Virus record (IMG/VR): IMGVR_UViG_3300017605_001304
Span: 85,156-149,155 of that record
Source of the DNA: a virus
Direction: 5' to 3' (one strand)
DNA length: 64,000 bases
Shown piece after piece: positions 47,420 to 63,849 of the stretch (the first letter of the stretch is position 1; the number at the start of each line of letters is the position of its first letter). The position numbers and the translations under genes are program-made. Below the pieces are notes generated by a model. That model was not told where the DNA came from, ran no database searches, and saw only the letters and a list, made by a program, of their open reading frames with translations.

Positions 47420-48590
47420 TCATTGCATGCGGTCCTCGGTCGGCCACGCGATGTCGTTCAGCACGATCCCCGGCAAGTACCCGCCCCCCGTGAAGAGGTA
47501 CACGTCCTGCGCCATCCGCGGCAGCAGCCGGCCCGTCACGTCATGCTCGTTCAGCGCACCGCACAGGTTGGCGAAGACTTGATTCATCGCAGGACATCCG
47601 GGATCCGACACAGGAAGATCTTGAGGCTCAGCGAGTTGAAGGTGCTCGGCCAGTAGAACGGGTTGAAGCGCGACTGGCCGTACCAGTAGAGCTGATCCGC
47701 GTCGGCCGCGGCGAAGAGCTGCTGAACCAGCCTACGGTACTTCAAGTCGAGCCACGAGGTCATTCCGCCGGCTCCTCGTCGAACATGCTCCTGAGCGTGT
47801 CGTAGGGCGGGTCGCCCCACAGGAACGCCCGCAGGGCGGGCAAGAGGTCCCGCATGATGACGCGCAGGTCCTCATGAAGCAGCGCGTCGTGCGCATCGGC
47901 TTCGAGCGCAGAATACTCGGAGCGCAGCACCCGCCCGACGTTCACTCGAAGATCCTCGCGAGCGGGTGCACCGCGGCGATGTCCCGCCAGAACACGGGGG
48001 CGCCAGACAAGCCCTGGCAGAAGTAGAACAGCAGGTGGCTCGGGAAGTTGATGCAGTAGTAGTCGTAAAGCTCATACATCAGCACGACTCCGTCAGCAGC
48101 GGTTGCAGCCACAGCGCGGAGAACAGGTCGCCGGCAAAGAAGAGCAGGTCCTGCTTGGAGAACATGATGCCCGCCGGCCCGTGCGTGTAGATGAGCTGGT
48201 GAGTCATCTTCATGAAGTGCGTGTTCACAAGGTGTACTCCGTCAGCAGGGCGCGCAGCGACAGCGAGCCGTAAAAGCTGTGTTCCCAGAAGGGCGCGCCT
48301 TGTACCCAGCGGAGGATGGGAGTCTCCTCGATCACGCGCTCGTAGAAGAACCCGTTGCTCATCCTCCTGAAGTGCGCGGTCATAGGAGCTTCTTCCGATT
48401 CTGCTTGCGGCGTAGGTCACGGAACAACGCAGGTACCACCCCTACCAAGGTAAGCACCACGAGGATCATTGCAAGCGGCCTCATCGCAGGAGGCTCAGGA
48501 GCTTCTCGAACCCGTCGAAGAGGAGGTGAAGGAAGTTCCAGAAGCCGGCCGCGATCAGGCGGCCGACGCCGCGTACGAGGGACATGTCAG
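47420..48590 (-). other. Cluster of about 7 coupled mini-ORFs (45-70 aa)
   Basis: e.g. 47420-47587, 47584-47763, 47760-47945, 48079-48228, 48225-48383 with ATGA/GTGA overlaps. Confidence 0.6.
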
Positions 48591-50716
48591 CTCCCGATCC
48601 AGGCCCTTCCCACGCCCGGGACGAGAACCGTCCGGATGCCGGCGGGCCAACCCTGCTTGCTGAACTCCGCCGCGATGATGGGCTCCAAGACCGCGGCGAC
48701 CTTCTCGGCGTCCGGCAGGCCGCGGAACTGCGCGAGTCGGTGCAGGGCCACGCGGCCCGGTCCGTACTCGTGGTAGTACCCGCCCGACGGCATGCTCCAG
48801 GTTCCGGACTTGGGCTTCGCGTGCAGCGGGTCCGGGTCGGCCGGCAGGTTCGCCTGCGTCTGCTGCGTGACCGAGTAGTCGGTCTGGATGCGCAGCCACC
48901 ACGGCAGCGCCCCGAACTCCGAGATCGCCTTCTTCGAGCCGGGCACCTCCGTCCAGTGATTGAGCAGGATCGTCGGCGAGTACGTGCTCATCGGGCCGGA
49001 GTAGGCGACGAGGACGTCCGGCGTCCACGGGATCGACTCCAGGTCCGGAGCCGTCCAGCGGTCCGACGTCGACTTCGCGTAGCCGCGCCACCAGTTCCAG
49101 TTGTAGTAGATCAGCCGCTCGATCGCGCTGGTCGCCTGCACGAGCTGCTCACCCTGCATGAGCATCGCCGTGAACCACGCCTCCATCCACGGGCTCGCGT
49201 ACTCGGTGAAGACGGACGTGTCCCGGCCCGAGCTCGCGAAGACGCCGAGGCTGTACGCCCCGAGCGGGTGCGGTAGCTCGACCGTCTCCCACTTCGTGAG
49301 GGTCCGGTCGACACAAGTCCGGAGGTAGTCCTTGTGGGGATGGCCGTCCGGCAGAAGCCTGTACGCGAGGGAGAGATTCCGGAACGCCCACGCCTCTCGG
49401 CGTTGACCGAGATTCTGGAGCGTGCCGTCGTTCGGGAAGTTGTCCCGGATCGCGAGCAGGCACCACGAGATGAACTCGTCGAGTGCGAACTTCCTACCGG
49501 TCGTCAGCCACGTGAAGAGTCCGAGCAGAGGCATGTGGGCCGTGTTGACCACGGAAGGGTTCTTGTCCGCCGGGTCCTGGGGCGTGGCCGTCTGCTTCAG
49601 GAACGGGTGGTCGTGATGCACGCCCAGCACCGTGCTTGAAGGCGTTCGCCAGTGCGTCGAGAAGCTCCCGGACCCGTTCAGGTCCGCGTGGCGGGTGAGG
49701 CCGACGGCGGTCGGAGAGCCGCCGTTCAAGGCGTAGGCCGCCCAGCGGGGCCAGTGACCGATGTCCTCGCGGTCGGCCGTGCCGTCCATCTGCTCGTAGA
49801 TCGGCCCAGAGGCCATGGGGGCGCCGTTGGGGTCGGAGGCAGGCAGGAGCGGTCCGCGCTTCGGGTCGCGGTTGAGGGCCGTCCAGAGCGTCTGGGAGGC
49901 CGTCTCGGGGACCGGCTGGCTGAAGTCCCACGGCGGGATGATCCCGAGGTGGGCGAGGACCGTCGGGTCGAGGTCGACCTGGACCTCGGGCAGCGCCTGC
50001 CCGAGCCACACGCAGGTCGTGAAGCGGGCGCCCGGGTAGAGCTTCCCGCCCTTGCAGACGGGGAGCTCGATCGTCCTGCCGTCCGCGGCGCGCGTGAGCC
50101 AGCGGACGTTGTTGATCGTCTGGACGACGGGCGACAGATCGACGCGGCTGTTCTCGACCGCGGCTTCGACCAGGACGCCCGGCCAGCCGTCGAAGGCCCG
50201 CCACGTCACCTCGATCAGGAGGCGCGGGTGCTGGCCGAGCGGGCCCGTCGGCGGACCCACGAGGGTGACGTCGTGCACGCGGATGCCCGTGCGCGAGGCC
50301 ATCAGGAGCTGCAGCATCTGGATCGACTGCGCCGGCAGGAGCAGCGCGGCCCACGTGCCCGTGGGGTCCTTGATCTCCAGGTCGAACTGCAGCAGCGGGA
50401 AGATCTGCTTCCACGGGATCATGAAGATGTGCGGCGGCTGAGCGATCGTCGCGGGACGGACTTCGAGCTTGCTGCGCTTGCCCTGCACGTGCGCCACGTT
50501 CGCGCAGACGCGTGCGACCGCGATCGAGCCGTCGGCCCAGGTCGAGATCGTGTCGACGGACGCGTCCACGAGCTGCACGTCGTCCCAGAAGACGGACACG
50601 TAGTCCGGCATCGCCTCGCCCGGCAGGCCGACCAGTTGAGCGATCACCGGCGCTTGCGTCGTCGCCGTCTGCGTCACGAAGACCTGCATCACTTCCTCCA
50701 GTGCTTCCGCCACCAT
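48587..50716 (-). CDS. Putative polysaccharide lyase-like protein (PcRGLX/YetA-type N-terminal barrel + alpha/alpha barrel)
   Basis: ISTWADGSIAVA (WxDGS motif); DREDIGHWPRW; TAHMPLL...WLTTG; RREAWAFR; W/Y-rich helical C-terminal half. Confidence 0.5.
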   Translation of the reverse strand: MVAEALEEVMQVFVTQTATTQAPVIAQLVGLPGEAMPDYVSVFWDDVQLVDASVDTISTWADGSIAVARVCANVAHVQGKRSKLEVRPATIAQPPHIFMIPWKQIFPLLQFDLEIKDPTGTWAALLLPAQSIQMLQLLMASRTGIRVHDVTLVGPPTGPLGQHPRLLIEVTWRAFDGWPGVLVEAAVENSRVDLSPVVQTINNVRWLTRAADGRTIELPVCKGGKLYPGARFTTCVWLGQALPEVQVDLDPTVLAHLGIIPPWDFSQPVPETASQTLWTALNRDPKRGPLLPASDPNGAPMASGPIYEQMDGTADREDIGHWPRWAAYALNGGSPTAVGLTRHADLNGSGSFSTHWRTPSSTVLGVHHDHPFLKQTATPQDPADKNPSVVNTAHMPLLGLFTWLTTGRKFALDEFISWCLLAIRDNFPNDGTLQNLGQRREAWAFRNLSLAYRLLPDGHPHKDYLRTCVDRTLTKWETVELPHPLGAYSLGVFASSGRDTSVFTEYASPWMEAWFTAMLMQGEQLVQATSAIERLIYYNWNWWRGYAKSTSDRWTAPDLESIPWTPDVLVAYSGPMSTYSPTILLNHWTEVPGSKKAISEFGALPWWLRIQTDYSVTQQTQANLPADPDPLHAKPKSGTWSMPSGGYYHEYGPGRVALHRLAQFRGLPDAEKVAAVLEPIIAAEFSKQGWPAGIRTVLVPGVGRAWIGS

Positions 50717-53700
50717 GATTTCAACTGCAACCGCAGCGCACCGACCACGACGACGGTGCGCAGCGCCGCCGAGACGTCGGGCGCGCCGGGATTCTCGAAG
50801 ATGAACAGCAGGCGCTCCGAATTACGTACGCGGCGATAGAGCTCGTACTGCAGGTGCTCTCGCTTGGTGTGGATGTTCATCAGGGATTCAGCAGCCGGTC
50901 GAGGTGGACGCGCGGGACGAGGCCCAGCGCCTCGAATCGGTACGAGCCGAGCAGGTCGCACACGAACGAGTGCGCTTCCACCGACAACTGGTAGCTCTGA
51001 CGGTGCACGTCGAAGCGGGCACGCGCGGTCCTCGGCGTGCCCGACAGGAAGACGGTCTCGGGCAGGAGCACCTCGTAGTTCCAGGTGCCGCGCGTGAACG
51101 GCGGCCAGATCGTGTCGAAGGCCCAGAGCAAGAGGCCGAGCTCTTTCCCGCGTAGCAGTTTCATTCGGACCTCGATCGGGCCATGTCGAACCGGTAGTAG
51201 TCGAGGCCCGTATCCAGGGAGTGGACGAGCGCTCGGATCGCCCAGCCGAGCGGCTCCCAGTTATGCAGGTTCACCGTCATCCGTCCACGGAGAACGTCTG
51301 CTTCAGGTACCTGCAGCAAGACGTCCGCCATCTTGTTGAGCAGCAGGTCGTGGCGGTGCGTCATGAGCAGCGGGTCAGAGTCCATACCAGAGATCCGCCA
51401 TCACCGTGTAGAGGTAGGTCCGTTCGTTCGCACGGACCATGCGGATCTGCCGCGTGCCGAGCCACATCTCCGCGGCGAAGTCCGCAGCCGCGGCGGTGAC
51501 GTCCACGTTTTCACCGTGCTCGCCCCGCAGGGTGCTGCCGGAGCCGGAGATGGTCGGCGGGGGCGGCGGGCCGAAGACTTCTTCCAGCGCCGCGGCCAGC
51601 ATCCGATGTCCGAGGTTCTGCAACATCAGGCACCGATCCCGACGAACGCCCGCTCCATCGAGCGGAGCGAGTTCAAGACCCCACGCGACAGCGTCACGGA
51701 GTTCGTGCCGAGCGCGATGAACTGCAAGAAGTCCGCGGCCGCGGGACTGATCTCGCCGATCTGGTGCGCGTCCTTCGGGTCCGCGAGGTAGGTGCCGTTG
51801 ATGCGGCGGCCGGGGTCGTCGAGCGGGTACACGATGCTCAAGGCCCGGTACATGATGGTGACTTCGTTCGTGCTCATGCCTCGTCCAGGGCGATCAGTCG
51901 AACCTGGAGCAGCGTACCCGCGATCGCCGTGCTGATCCAGTCGCGCGGGTCACCGAAGGTCCGCAGCGCGGAGACCGTGTGTAGGTAGTCGCGATGCTTC
52001 TCGTCCGGCTCGGCGTAGGCCGACGCGATCCGCGTCATCAGCTCCTGGTAGGTGAAGAGCATCCGGTCCTCGATGCGGCTGCGGCCTCGGTTGACGACCC
52101 GCATCGGATTACCGCTGACGATGGTGGGCGGTCGCTTCACCGGAACCTCGCCGCATGATCTGTCGATAGACGCCGCCCACGCTGTCGGAGGCCAACACGT
52201 AGAACGACCATGTCTGCAGCGGGAGACGCGCCCAGGTCGCGAGCAACGCCCAGCGCTGCCACAGGTTCGTTTCTCGGATGTCCCACAGAAACATGATGAG
52301 GGGCCTCGTCACGTCCAGAGTCCTAGCAGGTCCCGGACGGCGATGCCGAACGCGTCGTAGTTCGTCGCGTACCAGAAGTTCCAGGGCTGGTCGACGTGGA
52401 CCACCGGACTTGGCATGCGCAGCCAGATGTCGACCCAGAACGAGCTGCTGAGCCGCTGGAACGTCTGCCTCGTCGGGTCGAACGTCAATGGACGATCTCA
52501 AGAAGGGCACAGAGCTCCCGCGAGGTGTGCGCGTACCGGGTCGACAGAAAGATCCACGGGAACGGCCTGAAGAGGACGTGGCCGTTCGCCTGCCGCCAGA
52601 CTCCTGAGAGCGCCTCGGCCAGCCGTTCGAACTCACGCACCATGAGCGTGCTCCTCGAACAGACGGCGGAAGGCCCACCCGAGCGCGTCGCCGTTCGTGC
52701 TGTGAAACATCCAGAACAGGTCCTTCTCGAACATCGAGAGGCCGCAGCGTCGCCACATGTGCCAGCCGTAGCCAGCGATGCGTCTGTAGGTCTTCTCGGT
52801 CGGAGAGAGCGGGATCATGCGCGAGCCCGCGGCGAGAGGAACTCGACGAGGTACGCCCCGTGCCACACGTCCGGGCCCACCATCAGCAACTGGAAGATCG
52901 CGTCGCCAGTCACCGGGAGCGGAACGACGTTGAACCACATGCGCCAGAGGCTGTTCCGCATCTGCCGCTCGTCGTTCATGCGCGACGTCATGGTGACGTG
53001 CGGGGTCATGCGAAGATCTGCTTCAAGTAGTCGGCGGACCACAGGCCCGGGCTGAGCATCAGCTCCCGAAAGCCAAGACCCTCGGGAGCCGGCATGAGTT
53101 GCGACCACCAGAGCCAGAGGTTGCAACGCATGAGCACCTCCTGCCGGATCAGCATCTTCGTCCAGGCGCTCACGGGCAGGCGACCTTCACGGCCCTGTCG
53201 AAGAACTCGGCGAGCCGCTTCAGCTCGTCCGGGCTCACGACGCGGGCCTCCTCCAGGTCCTCGCAGCAGAAGCCGATCTGGATCTTGGTCACGGGATCCC
53301 CGTGCAGCCAGATCGTCAGGTCGCCGAGCTCGAAGGACCGGATGGTCTGCGGCTCGATCTGCAGCAACGCGGGTCGATCATCGAGCATCACGGGCCCTCC
53401 CACTGAAGGTCAGGCGGCAGCCACGGCCGCCGCTGCGGCTCGACCATACGCTGGAAGTGCCCGAAGAGCCAGTAGACGCCGATGATCCCCGGGACCTCGA
53501 ACTCCCGCATGACGGCCGTCCGGGTGCGCTCGACCAGCGAGGCGTAGCTGCGGTCGTGGGTGTTCACAGCCGGAGCCACGTGTCACGGATCAGCCGGTAC
53601 ACGGTGACGTCGATCTCGTGGCGGTCCTGCACGAAGAGGGCGAGCAGGTTCTCCGGCCAGAGTCCAGACTTCGTCATCTCGGTGCAGCACGCGAGCTCGG

Positions 53701-55530
53701 CCAGCTTGAAGTTCGCGTCACGGAGGAGCTGCGTGTGCTGGCGGGTCATCACGGGATGGCCCCGACGAAGATGTGCCCGAGCGTCGGAGCGCCGTAGAGC
53801 ATGCGGTGCGGGAAGTCCCCGTCGAAGTACATCACGTCCGATCGCATCGACAGCTCGATGTAGAGGCCGTACCAGAGGACGTTGGCGTGGTACTGCGTCA
53901 GCAACGTCTGCAGCGCGCACAGGCAGCGGTGCTCGTCCTTCTGCTGCTCGGTCGTGGGCGTCACGGCAGCCGTCCCGCGAAGATGTCTCGCAGCGTCGGA
54001 GCCGTGCTCACGCGCCGGTGCAGGCAGCCGTCGAAGTACGACTGCGCGCGACCCGGGCCGTCCAGCAAGCGGAGGAACGGCGTGACCGAAACGGTCGACC
54101 TTCCAGCATCGCGAGCCGCGGCGCGCACGGTCTGGAACAGGTGGACCGTGGCCTCGGTGATCCGGGCTTCGCGATAGGGAGGCAAGGTCATCGCGGCACG
54201 TCCAGGAAGATGTCGTTGAGCGTCGTGCTCGTGTCGTAGCCGAACACGCTCGCTCCGCGCCCGTGGCGCTCGTAAACCGTGCGGCTGGGCACGCTCAGCG
54301 TCCCGATGAAGAATCCGAGCGTGAAGGCGAGCTCGTGGCTGACGCCATTACGAAGGAGCTGGTGCAAGCGCTCGGCGTAAAGCAGCACTTGGCACTTCAC
54401 CATCGGCCGCCTCCAGCGAGGCTGCCGCCCAGCAGGTCCCGCAAGGTCTCCGCCGTGCTCATGACGTAGAGCAGATGCGCCTCGATGTCGTGGTGGAAGA
54501 GACTCATCGTCCGCAGCTCTGGCACGACGGCACGGACGCGCATGCTCGTGACCAGCAGGTTTGTGCGGCTCGCCCCATCGAGCTGGCCGTGCGACGCGCA
54601 GAACTCGTCGGTCCGCGCGTGGAGCTGGCGCTGGTAGTGAGTGACCGCGTTCATCGCGGCTCCTCGACCAAGTTGAGGAGGAAGAACACCGTCGTCTCTA
54701 CCTGCAGGGCGCCGGGGAGGGCGTACCGCATGTCGAGGTCACCCTTCAGGTCGATCGCCATGACGACGAGGTCCACGTCCGACGACATCATCTGGAGCTG
54801 CAGCTTGCAGGGGTTCATCAGAGTGCCCACACGTCGTCGGCGAGGACTTCACCGAGCAGCGACTCGCGCAGCTCCAACGCCCAGAAGATGTCGAGGTTCT
54901 CTCGGCCCTCTAGACGCATGTAGGCGAACGTCTGCATGTAGATCGCCGTGCGCAGCTTCGTCCACGCGGCGGTCATCATGTTCGTCCTCACGCGACGATG
55001 TCCAGGGCTTGATCGAGCAAGAAGGTCGAAGCGCCGTCGCTCGGCTCCCAGAATGGGAGGAGCAGGGGCTCGTCCTGAACGAGGCTTGGGTAGACCTGCA
55101 GGTACATCGCCGAGCTGAGCGACTGGTACCTGCGATCCGCGTCTTGAATCGCGAGTCGGTCGGGCTCTCTGCTCATGCCATGACCAGCAACGTGCGGAGC
55201 CAGTAGACAAGCTGCCAAGGCTCGCCGTTCCAGAACCCGTCGATCGTCATCTCCTGGTCACGCAGACTGAAGAACCCGAGGCTCTGCGTCGTGCAGGCGT
55301 CGCACAGGTCGTGGTACTTACGGTTCATGCTCAAGCTCCCACGTCCTTCAACACGGCCAGCAGCTCGGCCGGGAGCCAGCGTTCCATCATCCAGCCATGG
55401 TCGTTCGGCTGGGTGAGGCTGGCGAAGCGCCGGAGCAGCCAATCATGGTAGGAGTCAGCATTTTCGAGCAGGAACAACCGCAGGGTGTTCACCTGGAAGG
55501 TCCAGTTCGTCCGGTGGAAGGGCGACATGC

Positions 55531-55860
55531 TCAAGCTCCGAACATCTTCCTTAGCACGAACGGGGTCACGAAGGAAGAGGCGAGGCAGAGCCAGATCGCC
55601 CAGCGCCGGGACTTCGTGCTTTCCATGTCGACCTGGATCGTGCGCATGTCGGACTCCAGCAGCGAGACCCGGGTCGGAAGGGCCTCCTTGCCGCTGACGT
55701 GGATCAGGGCGTGGAGCGAGTTCACGTTGGCGTTCGTCTCGGCCACCGTGACCTGGATCTTCGAGATGAGTTGCAGGAGTTCGTCCTTGGACTGGTCCGT
55801 GCTCTGACGCAGCGCCTCCATCGAATCCGTAAGTTTCGACAACTGGGAAGGTCCACTCAT
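55531..55860 (-). CDS. Coiled-coil protein with C-terminal TM helix (XhlA/holin-accessory-like)
   Basis: GKEALPTRVSLLE...RRWAIWLCLASSFVTPFVLRK; GAGG SD. Confidence 0.55.
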   Translation of the reverse strand: MSGPSQLSKLTDSMEALRQSTDQSKDELLQLISKIQVTVAETNANVNSLHALIHVSGKEALPTRVSLLESDMRTIQVDMESTKSRRWAIWLCLASSFVTPFVLRKMFGA

Positions 55861-56446
55861 TGAGGTACCTCGACCGAGCAGGGTAGATCGGGGCCGAGAG
55901 GAGGCGGAGGGTGACCCGCGTCTCGACGCGAAGTGACCCGAGGTTCGGGTCAGCTATTGAGGCAGGACGTACGACGCGATGTCAAGATCGTCGGGACCCC
56001 TTCCGATCTCGTACCAATGGTCGCTACGGTAGAGCAGGGTCCCGAAGAAGTGTGCGACGTCGTGACCGTCGTCAACGACGTAACTGAAGTTCTCTGTGCT
56101 GACGGGAATGCAGGTCTTCCCGAGGCGGATCTTCGCCAGCCGCCGGCTGAGGCGGTGCAGCCGGTTCTGCATGTCGGAGTAAAGGGACACGGCTACCTTT
56201 CCGCGAAGAGCACGTGCACGAACGCGCGACTCATGGAGCCGAGGAACGGGGCGTAGCCGCCGCTGAAGCCGTAGAGCTCGACGTCGAAGAGGCGTCGGAT
56301 GTCGTCGCCGTCGTCAGCCAGATAGGGGAGCGGCACCGGCATGAGGATGTCGACGTCGTTCACGCGGATGTCGTAGAGCAGCGTGTGCTCGATCGACGCG
56401 AGCAGCCTCCCTTGCATGCGTCGCGCGAAGTAGGACCACGCACGCT

Positions 56447-56680
56447 TCATGAGAGGAAGTCCCACAGCGGCGGCCAGCACGAGAAGGCTGGGCAGAAGAT
56501 CGGCCCGTGCGAGCGGTTTCGGTGCGACCCCCCACTCAACTCGCGCTCGAAGTTGATCAGCAAGCGTAAGAACCCGTCATGCTCGAACGGCTGCGGGTAA
56601 TTCGGATGCTGGTACCAGCCGCGGGCGAAGAGGCAAGGCATGCTCATGAGAGGAAGTCCTGCAGCGGCGGCCAGCACGAG
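56447..56680. repeat. 37-bp direct repeat (35/37 identical) at 56447-56483 and 56644-56680
   Basis: TCATGAGAGGAAGTCC(CA/TG)CAGCGGCGGCCAGCACGAG. Confidence 0.9.
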
Positions 56681-57180
56681 CCGATCGGGGCGACGAGTTC
56701 ATAGCGGCCGCGGAGCCGGTGTTGATCTCCGTCGACCATGTGCTCGAAGGTGAGCAGCAGGTCGATCACCTCGCCCATGGAGATGGGCCACAGGTACGGC
56801 GGCAGGTGGTACCAGCCGCAGGCGAACTCACGGATAGGCATAGATGAGGCCCAGCAGGTCCGGCCACGCCGTGGTCGTCGGCACGTGCACGTAGATCCCG
56901 TACGCGCTCCGCCCACCCCAGCGGCCGAAGCCGTGATCGAACATGTCCTCGAACTGTCCGACCCAGGAGACGAAGTCCCGCCCACTGACGGAGACCTGCC
57001 GCAGCTCAGCGGACTTGTCGCCGTCGTGCCGCATGTTGTACGGCGCGCCGTAGAAGAACGGGCTCCTGAGCCGGTTCATGGCTCGAACAGATCCATCAAG
57101 GACGGCCAGCACGTCATGATCGGTGCGACGAACCGATCCTCGTACGGCAACGACTCACCGTCGCCATCCAGGAACTGCTC

Positions 57181-57341
57181 GAACCACATGAGCAGGTGCA
57201 CGCCGCTCGCGTAGCTCTTCCAGCGGACGGCCCGGAAGGCTGGGCGAGGATCCATCCGCGGGATGTTCATGTCCAGATCCAGTTGAACTTCGGCCAGCGG
57301 GTTTCTTCGACGCGTCCCTGGAACCACATGAGCAGGTGCAC
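57181..57341. repeat. 21-bp perfect direct repeat at 57181-57201 and 57321-57341
   Basis: GAACCACATGAGCAGGTGCAC (encodes VHLLMWF on the minus strand). Confidence 0.9.
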
Positions 57342-60300
57342 ACCGTTCAAGTTCGGGGTCCAGGATACCGCACGGAAGAACGGGAAAGGACTCGTCGGCA
57401 TGAAGATCATCGCAGCAGGTCCTGCAGATGTGGCCAGCTATCCGACTCGGGCATGTGCAGCGCGTACGTGAGGAAGCCATGCGTGCGCGGACCGAGGAAG
57501 CCGCTGAGCTGCTCCTCGAACCACAGCAGCATGCCGATCCCGGTGTCCCTCCCGGCGGCGTCGGCGAGGCCGTAGAGCACCATGTCCTCGAAGAACTGGT
57601 AGTGCTCCCGGTGCCGGCTGTCCGCGAGTCGCGGCAACACGCCGCTGCAGTAGAACGGCGTCTTCAAGCGGTTCATTCCAGGACGTCCGTGACCCAGTCG
57701 CTCGTGAGGAACGGCGCCGCCAGCGCGTCCGGGGTCCAGTCCCAGACACCCGTCAGCGTGCCCGCCATCTGCCACCAGAAGTTGCTCAGCACGACCTCCG
57801 AGGCTTCAACCCGATCGTGCAGGTCGATGTTCAAGAGGCCCTGCTGGATGTGAGGATTGAACGGCGAGGTCAGCGTCATGGGCGTCCCAGGTCGTGGAGC
57901 ATAACCGGCCCTATCAAGAAGTCGTAGACCGGCGCGATCACGGCCGGACGCCACGGGAAGGAGCCCCAGGCGTGGACGCCGTAGAGCTCCATCCAGAAGA
58001 CGCAGAGGAAGTAGACGCCGCTGGACACGTAGCCCTCGGGCATGTCGGCCCCGATGCGGCCGAACTCGTCGTAGATCTCGGTCGCGCGAGGGGCACGGAG
58101 CTGAGCGAACGGGCTGCGGAGGGGAATCATCCGAGCGCGTCCTCGATGTCGTAGATCGGGCGACGGCTCGTGATCCCGCGCATGAACGGATAGAGCGGCG
58201 AGGCGCCGTCCGCTCGCCACGCGTAAGCCCCGCTGCCGGCGGCTCCCGTCAAGTGCAGCCAGAAGCGGCGCAAGACCACGTGGCCGTCGTAGTCGCCACC
58301 CAGGTCGCCGACCTGGATGAACGCGCGGTAGATGCGCCGGTCCGCTTCTACCGGACTGTAGGTCCCGATCCCGAAGTGGAACATCAGTAGAACATCCTGG
58401 CGATCATGTTGCCGCACGCGAACTCGTAGAACCCCGCCGCCACGTTCATGCGCCAGCGGTGTCCGCCGGTGTTTACCACGCCGGTCAAGAGCTCGCAGAA
58501 GTGCACCAGGACCTCGTGACCACTCCGATCCAGCGGGCAGGGCCCGACGAGGGTGAGCGCCTCGTAGATCCGACGGTCCACGTCGTTCGCGAGCTTGGTG
58601 AACGGGGCGCCGGGGAACATCAGCGCAGGTCCCGGAACGTCATGTGGCCGCACAGGAACCGGTACGACCGAGCGTGGGCCGACGGGCGCCACGGACGGCC
58701 GCCGAAGCTGCTCACGCCGGTCAGGTGGCGGGCGAAGCTGTGCAGCACCTCGAACGGGTGGCGCTGGCGCTCGTAGGTGATCCGGGCGAACGCGACGCGG
58801 ATGCGTTCGTCGATTGCCACGTTGGAGTCGCTGCCGAACATGCTGGGCGGGAACATCAGCGCACCTTGTCACTGTTCAGCAGGCTCTGGAGCAAGAACTC
58901 GGGCAGGGAGCCTTCGAGATCCACGAAGTCGTCGTCGTCGATCAGCCTGTCGACGAACCGACGGAGCTCAAGACTCTTGTCCGTGTCCGAGGCCCACGGA
59001 TCTTGAAGCAGGCCGGCTGGCCACGTGAGGATGCGCATCAGGATCGTCCCGTGTCGAGCAGCTCCTCGACCTCGCTGGCCAGCGCCTCCCACCCGACCAG
59101 CTCGCCGAAGGACGTGTCCGACAAGATCCGGTCGAGCTCGTCAGGGATCAGGGTGATCAGCATGGTCGCCCGGTGTGGACGTCGCTCCGACCATGGATCC
59201 TGCACGAGTCCCTTCGGCCACCGGAGCATGGTCAGATCTCTACCGGTACGAACTGGCGGAGCCGCCAGCGCGGGATCACGGTGAACTCTTCGAGCAGCTC
59301 AAGATACCAGAGTTCGTCCAAGAACGGGACGGCGGCTACTGGGGTGCCATAGCCCGGCAGGAAGGTCGCGTACGAGAACGAGCTGACGGAGATCAGCATC
59401 GAAGCAGCGGGTCCAGGAGCCGTCCCATGTTGAGGAACATGGGGCCGAATCCGTGGTGGAGGAGTGACGCGTCGCCGTCCGCAAGGACCGCGGACCATAC
59501 GAAGTGCGGTCCGTGTCGGAGGCGGATGAAGGCGGCGAGTTCCATCACCGTAGTTCCACCGGGAACGGCGGGAGCCACAGGTCGAGGAGGAACGACGGGC
59601 TCACGTGCACCCACAGCCGCATGAACTCCATGGGCGTCGAGATGCCCGCGCCGGTGAAGTCGAACCTGCCCCTCAAGAGGAAGGGAGCCTTCGCGAGGTT
59701 GAAGGACAGCGAGTCGATGTTCATTCGAGCTCGATAAGGAACGCCGGGCTCGTGTAGACGGACAGGTCCACGAGCTCGGACGGCAGAAGCGGGAGCTCGA
59801 ACGGCGCCCCTACGAGGAAGGGGCCCTTCGCGAGTAGGAAGAGTATCCCGTGGGCAGTCATCGGGGCGGATCCACCATGAACGAGCGGAGCACCGTCCTC
59901 CACATCACACGCGCCAACGCGGACTCGTCCCCGTTCGTCCAGAACGTCAGCAGCGGCTCCCACCAGCTAACGGCGTACGGCACCGGGTCGAGCTCCGTGA
60001 AGTGCGGCCCTTGGATGTACTGGTTAAGGCGCATCGCAGTCCTTGAACAGCGGCAGCAGCCGGAAGAGGACCTGCCGAGGACGCACGAGACCGTTGAACG
60101 CCCACAGCAGCCCGTCCCACGGGAGCCACGGATTCACCCGCATATCGTCGAAGCGCGGACCCTTGATGTAGTCGTGCAGCGTCATCGGTCGATCATCCGC
60201 AGGAAGATGATCCGGAAGGTGAAGGAGAGCGGCTGACCGCCACGGAGCAGGATCTCCGCTGCGGGGCCCACTGCGCTGAACAGCCCGATGTAGGGCGCCC

Positions 60301-62733
60301 CGTGGCGGTAGTCGTTCAGCGTCACGGCACGAGCTCCAGCAGCAGCGTCCAACTGGTCAGCCTGGGCCGGAGCAGCGGCGTGGCGCAGAAGGGCATGATC
60401 GTCCAGACGATGTCGATGACGCCACGGGAGCCGTAGAGCTGGGTCGGGTACAAGACCCCGTAGACGAGGCCGTTGTAGCTCGGCGGGTAGTCGCCACGTA
60501 CGAGCCTCATGACGGGAGCCAGTGCAGCAGGCCCGTGAGATCCCCGGGCCTCGTCAGCGGCGTGGCGCAGAGGGCGATGAGCACCGCGGCCGTGTCCACG
60601 AGCGCGGGCGAGACAGCGTCGCCCTGACTCAAGACGTCGAGCACGAAGTTGATCCAGGTCGGTCCGTAAACACCACGGAAGGGATTCATGAGCGTCGCCC
60701 GAAGTGGTTGACGAGCTCGCACAGCGGGCCCTGCGAGTTCGCGAAGGCGAAGTCCCCCCACATCGGGACGCCGCTTCCGAAGCGGAGCAGGCGCATCGCT
60801 TTCCGGTCATCCAGCGAAAGGACGATCAGCAGCTCGTTGAGGACCGGATGCACGTTCACACGTGGCTTCATACCAGCATCTGCCCTTGGCGACCGTCGAC
60901 CTCCAGGAGCTCCGCGAGGACGTTACCAGGATACGCGAGCGGCGTCTCGCTCAAGCGCGTCAGCGGGTGCATCGCCTCCATGGTCAAGATCCACGCAGGC
61001 GTACGGAGCTCGAACCAGCTCGTGGCCCGGACGGTGCTCGTCAGGAGGGCGACCAGCTCGCCCGCGGTCGGGACGTCGTCGACGCGCCTCACGAGAGCAG
61101 CGCCAGCGGGAAGAAAGCCATCCACCGCATGCACGGCATGTACGCCTCGGCCTGGACCGCGGCCGCCCAGTACACAAGCTGCGGCGGTAAACGCCGGCTC
61201 GATCCTTCCAGCAAGTAACGATGCCAGGGGCGGATCATCGCACCGAACCCCAGAAGTCGGAGAGCCCGGCGATGTATCGCGACATGCTCCAAAGGATATC
61301 CAGCGGCAGGTACTCCTGCGCGCCGTCATACCGCGGCGCCGTCCCTGCGGCGTAGAGCACGTTGACGTAGTCGGTGAACCGGTGCCACTCCGCGGTGGAC
61401 ATCTCCCCGCGGATCACGCTCTCGAAGGTGGGCAGCGGAGGCCAGCGGGTCATCCGTCATCCTTCGGGAGGAACGTGGTCGGCCGGACCAAGTAGGCCGC
61501 ACGGCGATTGCCGTCGATCCTCGGAGCGTCCACGACTCTCGCGATCCTCCAGATAGCGCCGTCCACGGCGCTAAGGGTGCGCCAAGAGGCACCGACCAAG
61601 CTCGACTGGATCTCAGTCGAGATGCGAGACAGCGGTTGCGGATTGCGCCTGCGCCAGGGGCGGGTCATCGGAGAGGTATCCGGGTCTGCAGCAGCTCCAC
61701 GGCGCGCCACAGCAGGTGCATCGAGATGTGGTCCTCGACGCGGAGGAGTAGATGACGCCCATCATCCGCAGGGAACGCGGAGAGATGACGCCCCAAGAGC
61801 ACTCGCTGCGTCATCGTAAGGGCCTCAAGATGAAGGTCAGCAGCACATGCAAGTCGACGATCGAGCTCTGGAAGGTGGGCAGGACTTCGAGTGATACGGC
61901 GCGGTGCAGGCCGGTGATCAAGGTGCGGTCCTCACCCCGGTGGAGGTACAGCAGGCCGTCATCCCTCGGGAACGAGGCGAGGCGGCGTACGAAGTCCAGG
62001 CGCTCGATCATCACACGCGTCCTTGGAGCAGTCGAAGGAGCGCTTCCTGCATACACGTAGAAGGAGGCGGCCACGTGACACGAAGCTCCGCCGCGTCCAG
62101 CAGTTCGCGCACGAGGAGCTCTTCGTCACGGCGAGTGAAGTAGCGAGAGGCCCACTCCTGCGGTCCGCTTCGTAAGCGGGCGATGAGCAGCCGGTTGATC
62201 ACTTCTTGCCCCAGTCCGACAGGCCCTTCAGGGAGTCGGGACCGAACTCGACCTTCGCGTCGACCTTGAGCGGCTTCTCCTTCAGCTCGTCCTGGATGCG
62301 CTGCGTCGCGAGGCAGGCGAGCTGGTAGACGCCTGCGACGGTGATCGCGACCACGAGAGCCGCGACCAGCAGCGCCGCCATGCACGCAAGGTAGTCGGTC
62401 CTCTTCACGCCCAGGAACCGGATCGCGATCCAGCCGGCGAGGAGCACGACGCCGAGAGCCAAGAAGGCGATGGCGTTCACGCGGCGCCCCCCATCAGCAC
62501 GTCCGTCTCGAACTCCTCGATCGACACGCTGCGCACGCTGTTGAACCGCTCGCTCCAGTCCCAGTCGTCGACGTCCATGCCGATGTCCGCAGCGAGCTGC
62601 GTCTGCTCTTCCCGGAAGACCTCGAACTCCTCCTTCAGGACCGCGGCGCGCATCTCGGTGACCCGGTCCAGCGTCGTGCACACGGCACGGACGACGCTCT
62701 CGTCGGGACGGTTGAACAGGACGACGTAGACCC

Positions 62734-63150
62734 TCACGCCCCGCACTCCCGGTTGACTCCCATGTCGACGCCCATCACGACGTAGGGCTTGTCCTTCTGC
62801 TCGGGGTGATGCTTCACGCACCAGCCGATCGTGCAGGGCCACCAGCCCATCTTGAGCTGGTCGGCGCGGTACGGAGCGTAGAGCTTCAGCCACTCGTCCT
62901 TCGCGATGAACTTCTCGCCGTCGTCGGTCCAGTGCACCCAGCCGTCGAGTTCATCCGCGAGCTCTCGCAGTCGCTGGATCTTCTCGACGTCGATCGGGCC
63001 GAGACCGTAGTGATTGAGCCGGTCCCCGACCACGATCCCGAAGAGATCGTATTCGAGGGCGCTCATCCAGCCGGCGCAGTAGTGGTCCTCGCTGATCTCC
63101 GACATGAGGTCGATCAGGGACGCGACGACGGTCTCGCGGCTCAGGGTCAC
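62734..63150 (-). CDS. Conserved-looking phage hypothetical protein
   Basis: MSEISEDHYCAGWMSALEYDL...GWVHW motif. Confidence 0.7.
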   Translation of the reverse strand: MTLSRETVVASLIDLMSEISEDHYCAGWMSALEYDLFGIVVGDRLNHYGLGPIDVEKIQRLRELADELDGWVHWTDDGEKFIAKDEWLKLYAPYRADQLKMGWWPCTIGWCVKHHPEQKDKPYVVMGVDMGVNRECGA

Positions 63151-63561
63151 GACTCGTCCTCCAGCTTGTGCAAGAGGGCATCGTACTCGTCAGCGACGTC
63201 GAGGACGCGCTCGATCACGGCCTTGGTCCGGGTGATCTCGAAGAAGCGCTCCAGGTCGGAGATCCGCTGACGCATCTGGTCCCACTCGCCTTTCTCTAGT
63301 GGCGACGCGAGATTCCCGAGCTCCAGCGGGATCGCTCCGACCTCGTCGAGGCACTCCTGCATCCTTGCCTTGTTCACGGCTCCTCCTTGTACACCGTACG
63401 CAGCAGCTTCCTGGCCTTCTCGCGATTCCCACCCGAGAGACGCAGCGCGATCCGCCAACGTACCCAGCGGCCGATCCTGTTGAGCACCGGCTCCGTGAGC
63501 TTGATCCAGACGTACAGCACCGCGCAGCCGAAGAGCAGGCAGTAGACCCACACCCAGGGGC

Positions 63562-63849
63562 TCACACGCGGGCCCCCGCCAGCTCCGAGATCGCGGCGTT
63601 ATACCGCGTCATGAAGTCCGGGTTCAACCCGTGGCACTTGCACTTGATCGGCTCGGCCGCAGCCTCGAACTCCCCCTTCGCGATGCGGCGGTGGGCCACC
63701 CAGGCCGCGACGCCCGCGTACTGGTAGCGCTCGTGCAGGCTGAGGATCGTGGCGGCTTGGTCGGCAGGGACCGGCTCGCAGTCAGCGCAGGCGAACGCGA
63801 AGGTGTCCCCGCAGTTGACGTTGAGCTCGATCTTGTTCTCGCGCACCAT
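63562..63849 (-). CDS. Phage hypothetical protein (true start may lie further upstream)
   Basis: VNCGDTFAFACADCEPV motif. Confidence 0.6.
   Translation of the reverse strand: MVRENKIELNVNCGDTFAFACADCEPVPADQAATILSLHERYQYAGVAAWVAHRRIAKGEFEAAAEPIKCKCHGLNPDFMTRYNAAISELAGARV

Follow-up and report, generated by a model that had tools for sequence, protein, structure and literature searches.

In the window analysed here, which comprises the last 64 kb (64,000 nucleotides, positions 85,156 to 149,155) of the 149,155-bp IMG/VR virus record IMGVR_UViG_3300017605_001304, a record judged to be approximately 70% complete, thirteen very small genes follow one another on the minus strand between positions 55954 and 58856. 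The record belongs to a phage with a guanine-plus-cytosine (GC) content of 65% (60–69% throughout the window) and with most of its genes on the minus strand; no tRNA genes were found in the window. The major capsid protein is of the gp23 type (Pfam PF07068, E 9e-66), its best match among cultured phages showing less than 40% identity and that of the nearest uncultured record 48%. Coordinates are those of the window unless the genome is named, and each open reading frame (ORF) is referred to by its upper coordinate, e.g., 58856 for the minus-strand ORF 58620..58856. Judged by sequence similarity, the thirteen mini-genes form three adjacent families, of five, six and two members (A, B and C, respectively).

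A preliminary description of this DNA had listed thirteen minus-strand ORFs, and all of them are present where it placed them, with proper start and stop codons and lengths of 47–89 amino acids (aa). The GC content at third codon positions (GC3) ranges from 0.79 to 0.94 and equals that of the structural genes of the phage, and, with the exception of the 47-aa ORF, GC content is by far the highest at position 3, followed by position 1 and then position 2, which indicates true sense frames, as expected in a high-GC genome. In the ORFs on the plus strand of this region the pattern at the first and second positions (GC1 and GC2) is inverted, and these ORFs are antisense shadows. At eleven of the twelve internal junctions the genes overlap (ATGA, TGATG and, once, 14 nt); the remaining junction, between 56450 and 56190, is a 2-nt gap. 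The public gene set had independently called all thirteen ORFs, including the 47-aa one. By our own arithmetic the chance of a 75-codon frame remaining open in random sequence of 65% GC is about 15%, so that thirteen consecutive open frames would be expected by chance with a probability of about 1e-11. The thirteen ORFs are thus real, separate mini-genes, with translation predicted from sequence.

Pairwise relationships were assessed with BLAST and with Smith-Waterman z-scores (200 shuffles per pair), and hidden Markov models (HMMs) of the families were searched against 59 local small proteins together with 11,800 composition-matched shuffles. Smith-Waterman z-scores within families A and B are 18–21 for the strongest links, and the weakest members join at 5.7–6.2, BLAST E-values within families go down to 6e-15, the hydrophobic columns are invariant within families, and the HMMs recover the outlier of each family above every decoy or close to the highest of them.

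Family A begins with 58856 (58620..58856, 78 aa), which has a GC3 of 0.94, a z-score of 18.4 to the next gene and an HMM E-value of 7e-35. It is followed by 58620 (58384..58620, 78 aa), with BLAST E-values of 1e-11 to 58384 and 2e-10 to 58856 and a TGATG junction, by 58384 (58127..58384, 85 aa), linked to other members with z-scores of 18.3, 9.1 and 9.6, and by 58130 (57876..58130, 84 aa), which matches 58856 with a BLAST E-value of 1.4e-7 and carries at residues 4–8 an N-terminal motif shared with family B. The fifth member, 57879 (57673..57879, 68 aa), is an outlier with an acidic isoelectric point of 4.1; it is linked to 58384 with a z-score of 5.7, with a further link at 3.3, and is placed by the A HMM above all 11,800 decoys. 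All of these genes lie on the minus strand, as do those of families B and C.

Family B begins with 57676 (57407..57676, 89 aa), which has a long N-terminal extension and was found by the B HMM with an E-value of 7.7e-4 before its inclusion; its z-scores are 4.7–6.2 to 57270, 57079, 56841 and 56647 and 3.6 to the next gene, 57410. The latter (57267..57410, 47 aa) had been described as truncated, and DNA alignment confirms that it is a shortened copy of its neighbour 57270 (57076..57270, 64 aa), with 21 identical nucleotides across the core, a z-score of 15.3 and the loss of a central spacer, i.e., an internal loss. It is also the weakest coding case of the thirteen, with a GC3 of 0.79 and GC1 below GC2. 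The neighbour itself matches 56841 with a BLAST E-value of 1.7e-8. Next comes the outlier of the family, 57079 (56828..57079, 83 aa), with a z-score of 6.2 to 57676 and 12.2 bits with the B HMM, one of the 11,800 decoys scoring higher (12.6 bits). The family ends with 56841 (56644..56841, 65 aa) and 56647 (56447..56647, 66 aa), which match each other with a BLAST E-value of 6e-15.

The two remaining genes, 56450 (56193..56450, 85 aa) and 56190 (55954..56190, 78 aa, GTG start, GC3 0.81), form group C, a weak pair with a z-score of 4.9 and a BLAST E-value of 0.076, and 56450 has no link to A or B by any statistic. The last of the thirteen genes, 56190, is followed by a gap of 93 nt, with a 7-bp GC-rich hairpin at 55951–55935 (minus strand) directly after the stop codon and a second hairpin within the gap. 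The first hairpin was considered as a signal and rejected, its folding z-score of −1.83 being not significant and a U-tract being absent.

Between families A and B no comparable signal was found. The 30 A-by-B Smith-Waterman z-scores average 0.14, the HMM of neither family retrieves anything from the other, and a position-specific scoring matrix (PSSM) of the core from A does not retrieve B, nor does the reverse succeed. Profile-profile alignment with hhalign gives a probability of 0.1% over 11 columns and a score of 8.7, which is that of 150 column-shuffled nulls (mean 8.66, P 0.43), and the global mode does no better. The preliminary description had proposed a single thirteen-gene family with one shared helix core, and this failed every profile test applied (z-scores, hhalign, HMMs and PSSMs). 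By the yardstick which that description had itself set, that profiles should outscore shuffles, a homology spanning all thirteen genes is not supported: within A and within B the HMMs beat the 11,800 shuffles, but across families the scores are no better than those of shuffles.

These negative comparisons have to be weighed against several shared motifs, which would be explained if all thirteen genes formed one very old, hyper-diverged family with one fold, its similarity drifting below detection along the array. The pattern L-x2-F-x5-G, invariant in family A, recurs in four of the six B members, against a proteome rate of 0.026 per 70 aa. Ser/Thr-Pro-Phe occurs in colinear positions within the first 15 residues of five of the thirteen proteins (two of A, three of B) vs 3 of 236 other proteins, and across the 44.7-kaa proteome its five-residue form at residues 4–8 is found only in 58130 (A) and in 57676 and 57079 (B). 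A downstream Trp-(x)-Pro element is present in nine of the thirteen, which by itself is weak evidence since it occurs in 72 of those 236 proteins as well. In a global alignment the N-terminal motif, the core and the Trp-(x)-Pro element stand in register, the genes are alike in length, and the AlphaFold models of A and B show the same order of helices. Both models consist of helices only, the core forming a helix of 13 residues that stops at the glycine, and their confidence (pLDDT) is low, at 60 and 56; from them a helical fold of the mini-proteins may be inferred. Against a single family stand the cross-family statistics given above and also the fact that the motifs were picked after the data had been seen. 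Furthermore, the B members share one ancestor and are not independent, so that each motif coincidence counts roughly once and is worth a p of roughly 1e-3 to 3e-2. Group C fits only the loose pattern F-x3-hydrophobic-x-G, whose background rate across the proteome is 0.07 per 70 aa. On these grounds it is plausible that A and B share an ancestor, with a chance somewhat short of even, whereas the inclusion of C is unsupported and a single family of thirteen is, in our judgement, doubtful.

The core pattern has two matches outside the array. One is a 47-aa protein (47942–48085, minus strand) with hydrophobic-L-x2-F-x3-L-x-G as in A and B. It lies on the far side of a gene for a 701-aa protein (48587–50692, minus strand), and a paralogue of this protein, 891 aa long, is encoded some 120 kb away (genome 12935–15610, minus strand); neither of the two large proteins has a match in Pfam or PHROGs.

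The same preliminary description had attributed the array to serial tandem duplication followed by strong divergence, and this part of it is borne out. The best match of a gene within its family is in most cases the gene directly beside it, and the array is itself part of a longer minus-strand block (50689..62014), delimited from gene calls, junctions and similarity decay, of at least 53 mini-genes with predicted coupling and at least eight further pairs or groups of neighbouring paralogues. Across the 53 genes the mean z-score is 3.44 for adjacent genes, with 23% of the pairs above 4.5, and falls to 1.22 at distance 2, 0.45 at distance 3 and 0.12 at distances of 8 or more, where 0.3% of the pairs exceed 4.5, which is about the Gumbel expectation. 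Such a steep fall of similarity with gene distance is the signature of serial tandem duplication. At the DNA level, near-identical tracts lie at the gene ends: in 56841 and 56647 the 3' 37 nt, covering the C-terminus and the junction, are 95% identical and recur with a period of 197 nt, about 20 nt near the 5' end are also conserved, and the middle is approximately 55% identical. Such a pattern fits either exchange at the gene ends, by recombination or conversion, or a middle that has been diversified.

The further neighbour mini-families in the block are 52818/52488, 53173/53009, 54654/54191/53964, 59229/59038, 59861/59724, 60644/60510, 60185/60034 and 51877/51626. Two apparent gaps, at 59393–59545 and 61669–61801 (both minus strand), each hold a mini-ORF missed by the GC3-based gene caller, so that the block is more continuous than the gene calls suggest. 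One of these mini-ORFs starts on the stop codon of the upstream gene and resembles the group at 59858–60325 (Gly-Pro-x-Phe near the N-terminus), and the other resembles the gene at 61811–62014, with which it has Phe-Pro-x-Asp-Asp-Gly in common.

The copies have diverged considerably. Paralogues show 34–45% amino-acid identity with synonymous divergence (dS) of 0.4–1.0, and the Nei-Gojobori ratio of nonsynonymous to synonymous divergence (dN/dS) for six paralogue pairs is 0.66–1.27, an estimate that is crude under the extreme GC3 bias; going by these values, the paralogues are clearly not under strong purifying selection. Their composition is also unusual: in the thirteen proteins lysine makes up 0.8% and K/(K+R) is 0.09, against 4.4% and 0.42, respectively, in proteins longer than 150 aa; phenylalanine, tryptophan, histidine and arginine are raised, and leucine slightly so (10.1% vs 8.6%). 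No transmembrane segments were predicted in them, the highest 19-residue Kyte-Doolittle value being 1.38.

A dN/dS of about 1, low structure confidence, the unusual composition and the absence of detected homologues might all be expected if the ORFs were evolutionary by-products, i.e., duplicated filler or a "gene nursery" without selected function, kept open through high GC only. Thirteen consecutive open frames (more than 50 in the wider block) with precise ATG/stop overlaps are difficult to reconcile with this, as are the GC3 shared with the structural genes and the invariant hydrophobic columns persisting within families, and packaging-size pressure acts on phage genomes. We consider such an origin improbable.

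The lysine-poor bias extends to the rest of the block and to three other mini-gene arrays, at genome 3924–6976 (minus strand), genome 49918–51934 (plus strand) and window 47584–48383 (minus strand), which have K/(K+R) values of 0.18–0.19 and are rich in tryptophan and leucine; the small-gene runs at genome 67740–69359 and window 62199–63849 are of normal composition. Going by the composition common to the arrays, some 75 such lysine-poor mini-proteins may form a class distributed over the genome. They might be viewed as a self-renewing library of mini-binders, in which gene ends and junctions would serve as recombination handles, would time and again copy and shuffle cassettes with hypervariable middles and would provide a heritable repertoire against host defences, the depletion of lysine being a feature that may allow escape from lysine-directed host tagging or proteolysis. 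As a whole we regard this as a quite unlikely reading.

Relatives were sought at several levels. Megablast found nothing similar to the region from 55 to 60 kb among 50,697 phage records, and when 5.8 billion protein clusters were searched with word-seeded profiles, families A and B and the protein 56450 matched only the window's own proteins. Ten of the mini-genes had no match in Pfam or PHROGs at E≤1, and 57410, 56450 and 56190, compared with PHROGs alone, had none at E≤0.1. Atlas searches gave no usable named relative, and Foldseek searches of the A and B models against the PDB gave nothing at E≤0.001, the models being too poor for interpretation. Neighbouring and conserved genes were used as queries as well: the 701-aa protein found no related locus in viral or metagenome contigs, and the AAA ATPase (40% identity) and the capsid protein (48%) found only distant records, which contain no homologues of A or B. 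One metagenome match to 56841 was rejected as a seeded coincidence of eight residues in a metallophosphoesterase-like frame of an unrelated contig. By all of these comparisons the predicted mini-gene families are without known relatives and the phage is without a close relative. Two near-identical contigs of 151 nt, corresponding to window 58366–58672 in the family A genes, were found in one DNA run from a rhizosphere metagenome and point weakly to the soil or the rhizosphere as the habitat.

An exhaustive HMMER search with family A against 1.84 billion representatives returned three non-self proteins, all long repeat proteins in which weak repeat matches had been summed, and these were rejected. 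The result bears on the idea that frameshifts broke up a single large repeat protein and left the mini-genes behind, as units lying head-to-tail and alike in length might suggest, since no intact long relative was obtained but just these three unrelated proteins with spurious summed matches. The start of each unit, moreover, sits exactly on the previous stop and the frames change in an ordered way, and random decay would not yield the former. The probability of such an origin is very close to nil.

The searches also bear on the possibility that the genes encode an array of immunity proteins or antidotes, e.g., against toxins that the phage itself injects or to exclude superinfection, in the manner of the orphan immunity arrays of polymorphic toxins. 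Immunity arrays typically consist of small paralogues that lie in tandem and have diverged. In this case, however, no toxin gene was found in or beside the block, no Pfam immunity family was matched, the flanking genes tested had no match in Pfam or PHROGs, and the mini-proteins are smaller than typical immunity proteins. We therefore regard an immunity function as highly improbable.

Taken together, the explanation that we prefer, with a likelihood slightly above even, is that of three duplicated mini-gene families with coupled expression and a non-structural accessory role in binding to the host. The families arose through repeated local tandem duplication, probably with unequal recombination where gene ends are conserved and where genes overlap, followed by fast protein divergence that spared only a small hydrophobic scaffold, consisting of a predicted helix of some 13 residues with glycine at its end and the later Trp-Pro element. 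The genes lie in one long block on the same strand. Since nearly every start overlaps the preceding stop, a polycistronic mRNA with termination-reinitiation coupling is the most likely arrangement. The products are most likely fast-evolving soluble accessory proteins that would bind host factors, either in host takeover or in counter-defence, with paralogues possibly specialised on different targets. This role is proposed by analogy with the tandem amplification of counter-defence genes in T4 and T6 and with small T4 genes, themselves lacking relatives, whose products inhibit enzymes of the host; the preliminary description had likewise suggested a library of small binders, which would serve in anti-defence or in host range.

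Several results weigh against this explanation. Depletion of Shine-Dalgarno (SD) sites as a mark of coupling was not supported: although as few as four of the thirteen mini-genes have even an SD-like 4-nt match upstream (our own count), genome-wide such 4-mers are not rarer before overlapping genes (43 of 103) than before spaced ones (38 of 123), so that SD frequency makes no distinction and leaves the overlaps as the sole ground for coupling. Sigma-70-like promoters are not enriched, with one found vs 1.2 expected, though this consensus may not be that of the host and the block runs near the end of the contig. The mini-proteins have no homologue and no domain match, and a dN/dS near 1, crude as it is, together with pLDDT values below 61 would be compatible with proteins under weak constraint as well.

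The array may also be compared with known systems. The block offers candidate families for new host-targeting small proteins, its present value being limited in that the phage is uncultured and has no relatives for comparison. By its predicted products the array is a member of no described protein family, and no homology to a described anti-defence or anti-CRISPR family was found, nor were the adjacent toxin gene and known immunity domain that characterise polymorphic-toxin immunity.

A closer resemblance is to the hyperplastic or early small-ORF clusters of T4-like phages, in which small genes lacking homologues are closely packed over long stretches, and a run of this kind in a phage with a gp23-type capsid is what was found here. 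Such clusters are thought to modulate the host, e.g., through gene 55.2 of T4, which is without known relatives and inhibits host topoisomerase I (PMC4396842). The present block differs in its neighbour paralogy over at least 53 genes, its near-universal stop/start overlaps and its lysine-poor, aromatic-rich composition, and no early promoters were recognised in it, although the consensus used may not be that of the host. Among the large eukaryotic DNA viruses, multigene families such as the MGF of African swine fever virus and the duplications of giant viruses (PMC13359090) are similar in consisting of diverged tandem paralogues, in genome expansion and in a presumed interaction with the host; they belong, however, to another virus realm, and the proteins described here are much smaller and have no sequence or fold relationship with them.

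Finally, there is the genomic accordion, in which small accessory genes are copied head-to-tail in a large virus through local recombination, with dosage effects followed by divergence. T4 and T6 amplify counter-defence genes in tandem, at the tifA-dmd locus (PMC9391042) and in a SegB-driven manner (PMC13096335), accordion amplification of the poxvirus gene K3L is reported in a passage of PMC13359090 that cites Elde 2012, and accordion dynamics have been discussed for large phages (PMC13359090). Families A and B likewise each consist of consecutive head-to-tail paralogues. In contrast with the copies of T4, T6 and K3L, which are near-identical, recent and unstable and vary visibly in number, those of the array have diverged to 34–45% identity and have become fixed as separate genes, with near-identity confined to two tracts, of about 20 nt and 37 nt. 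The array would be like an accordion long since frozen and diverged. That phages amplify counter-defence genes in tandem is known from laboratory evolution. Natural amplifications are poorly documented after long divergence, of which this block, with dozens of mini-genes predicted to be coupled and diverging at a nearly neutral rate outside a very small scaffold, would be a fixed, large-scale example, and it is in this sense an unusual variant of a known theme, that of tandem gene amplification.

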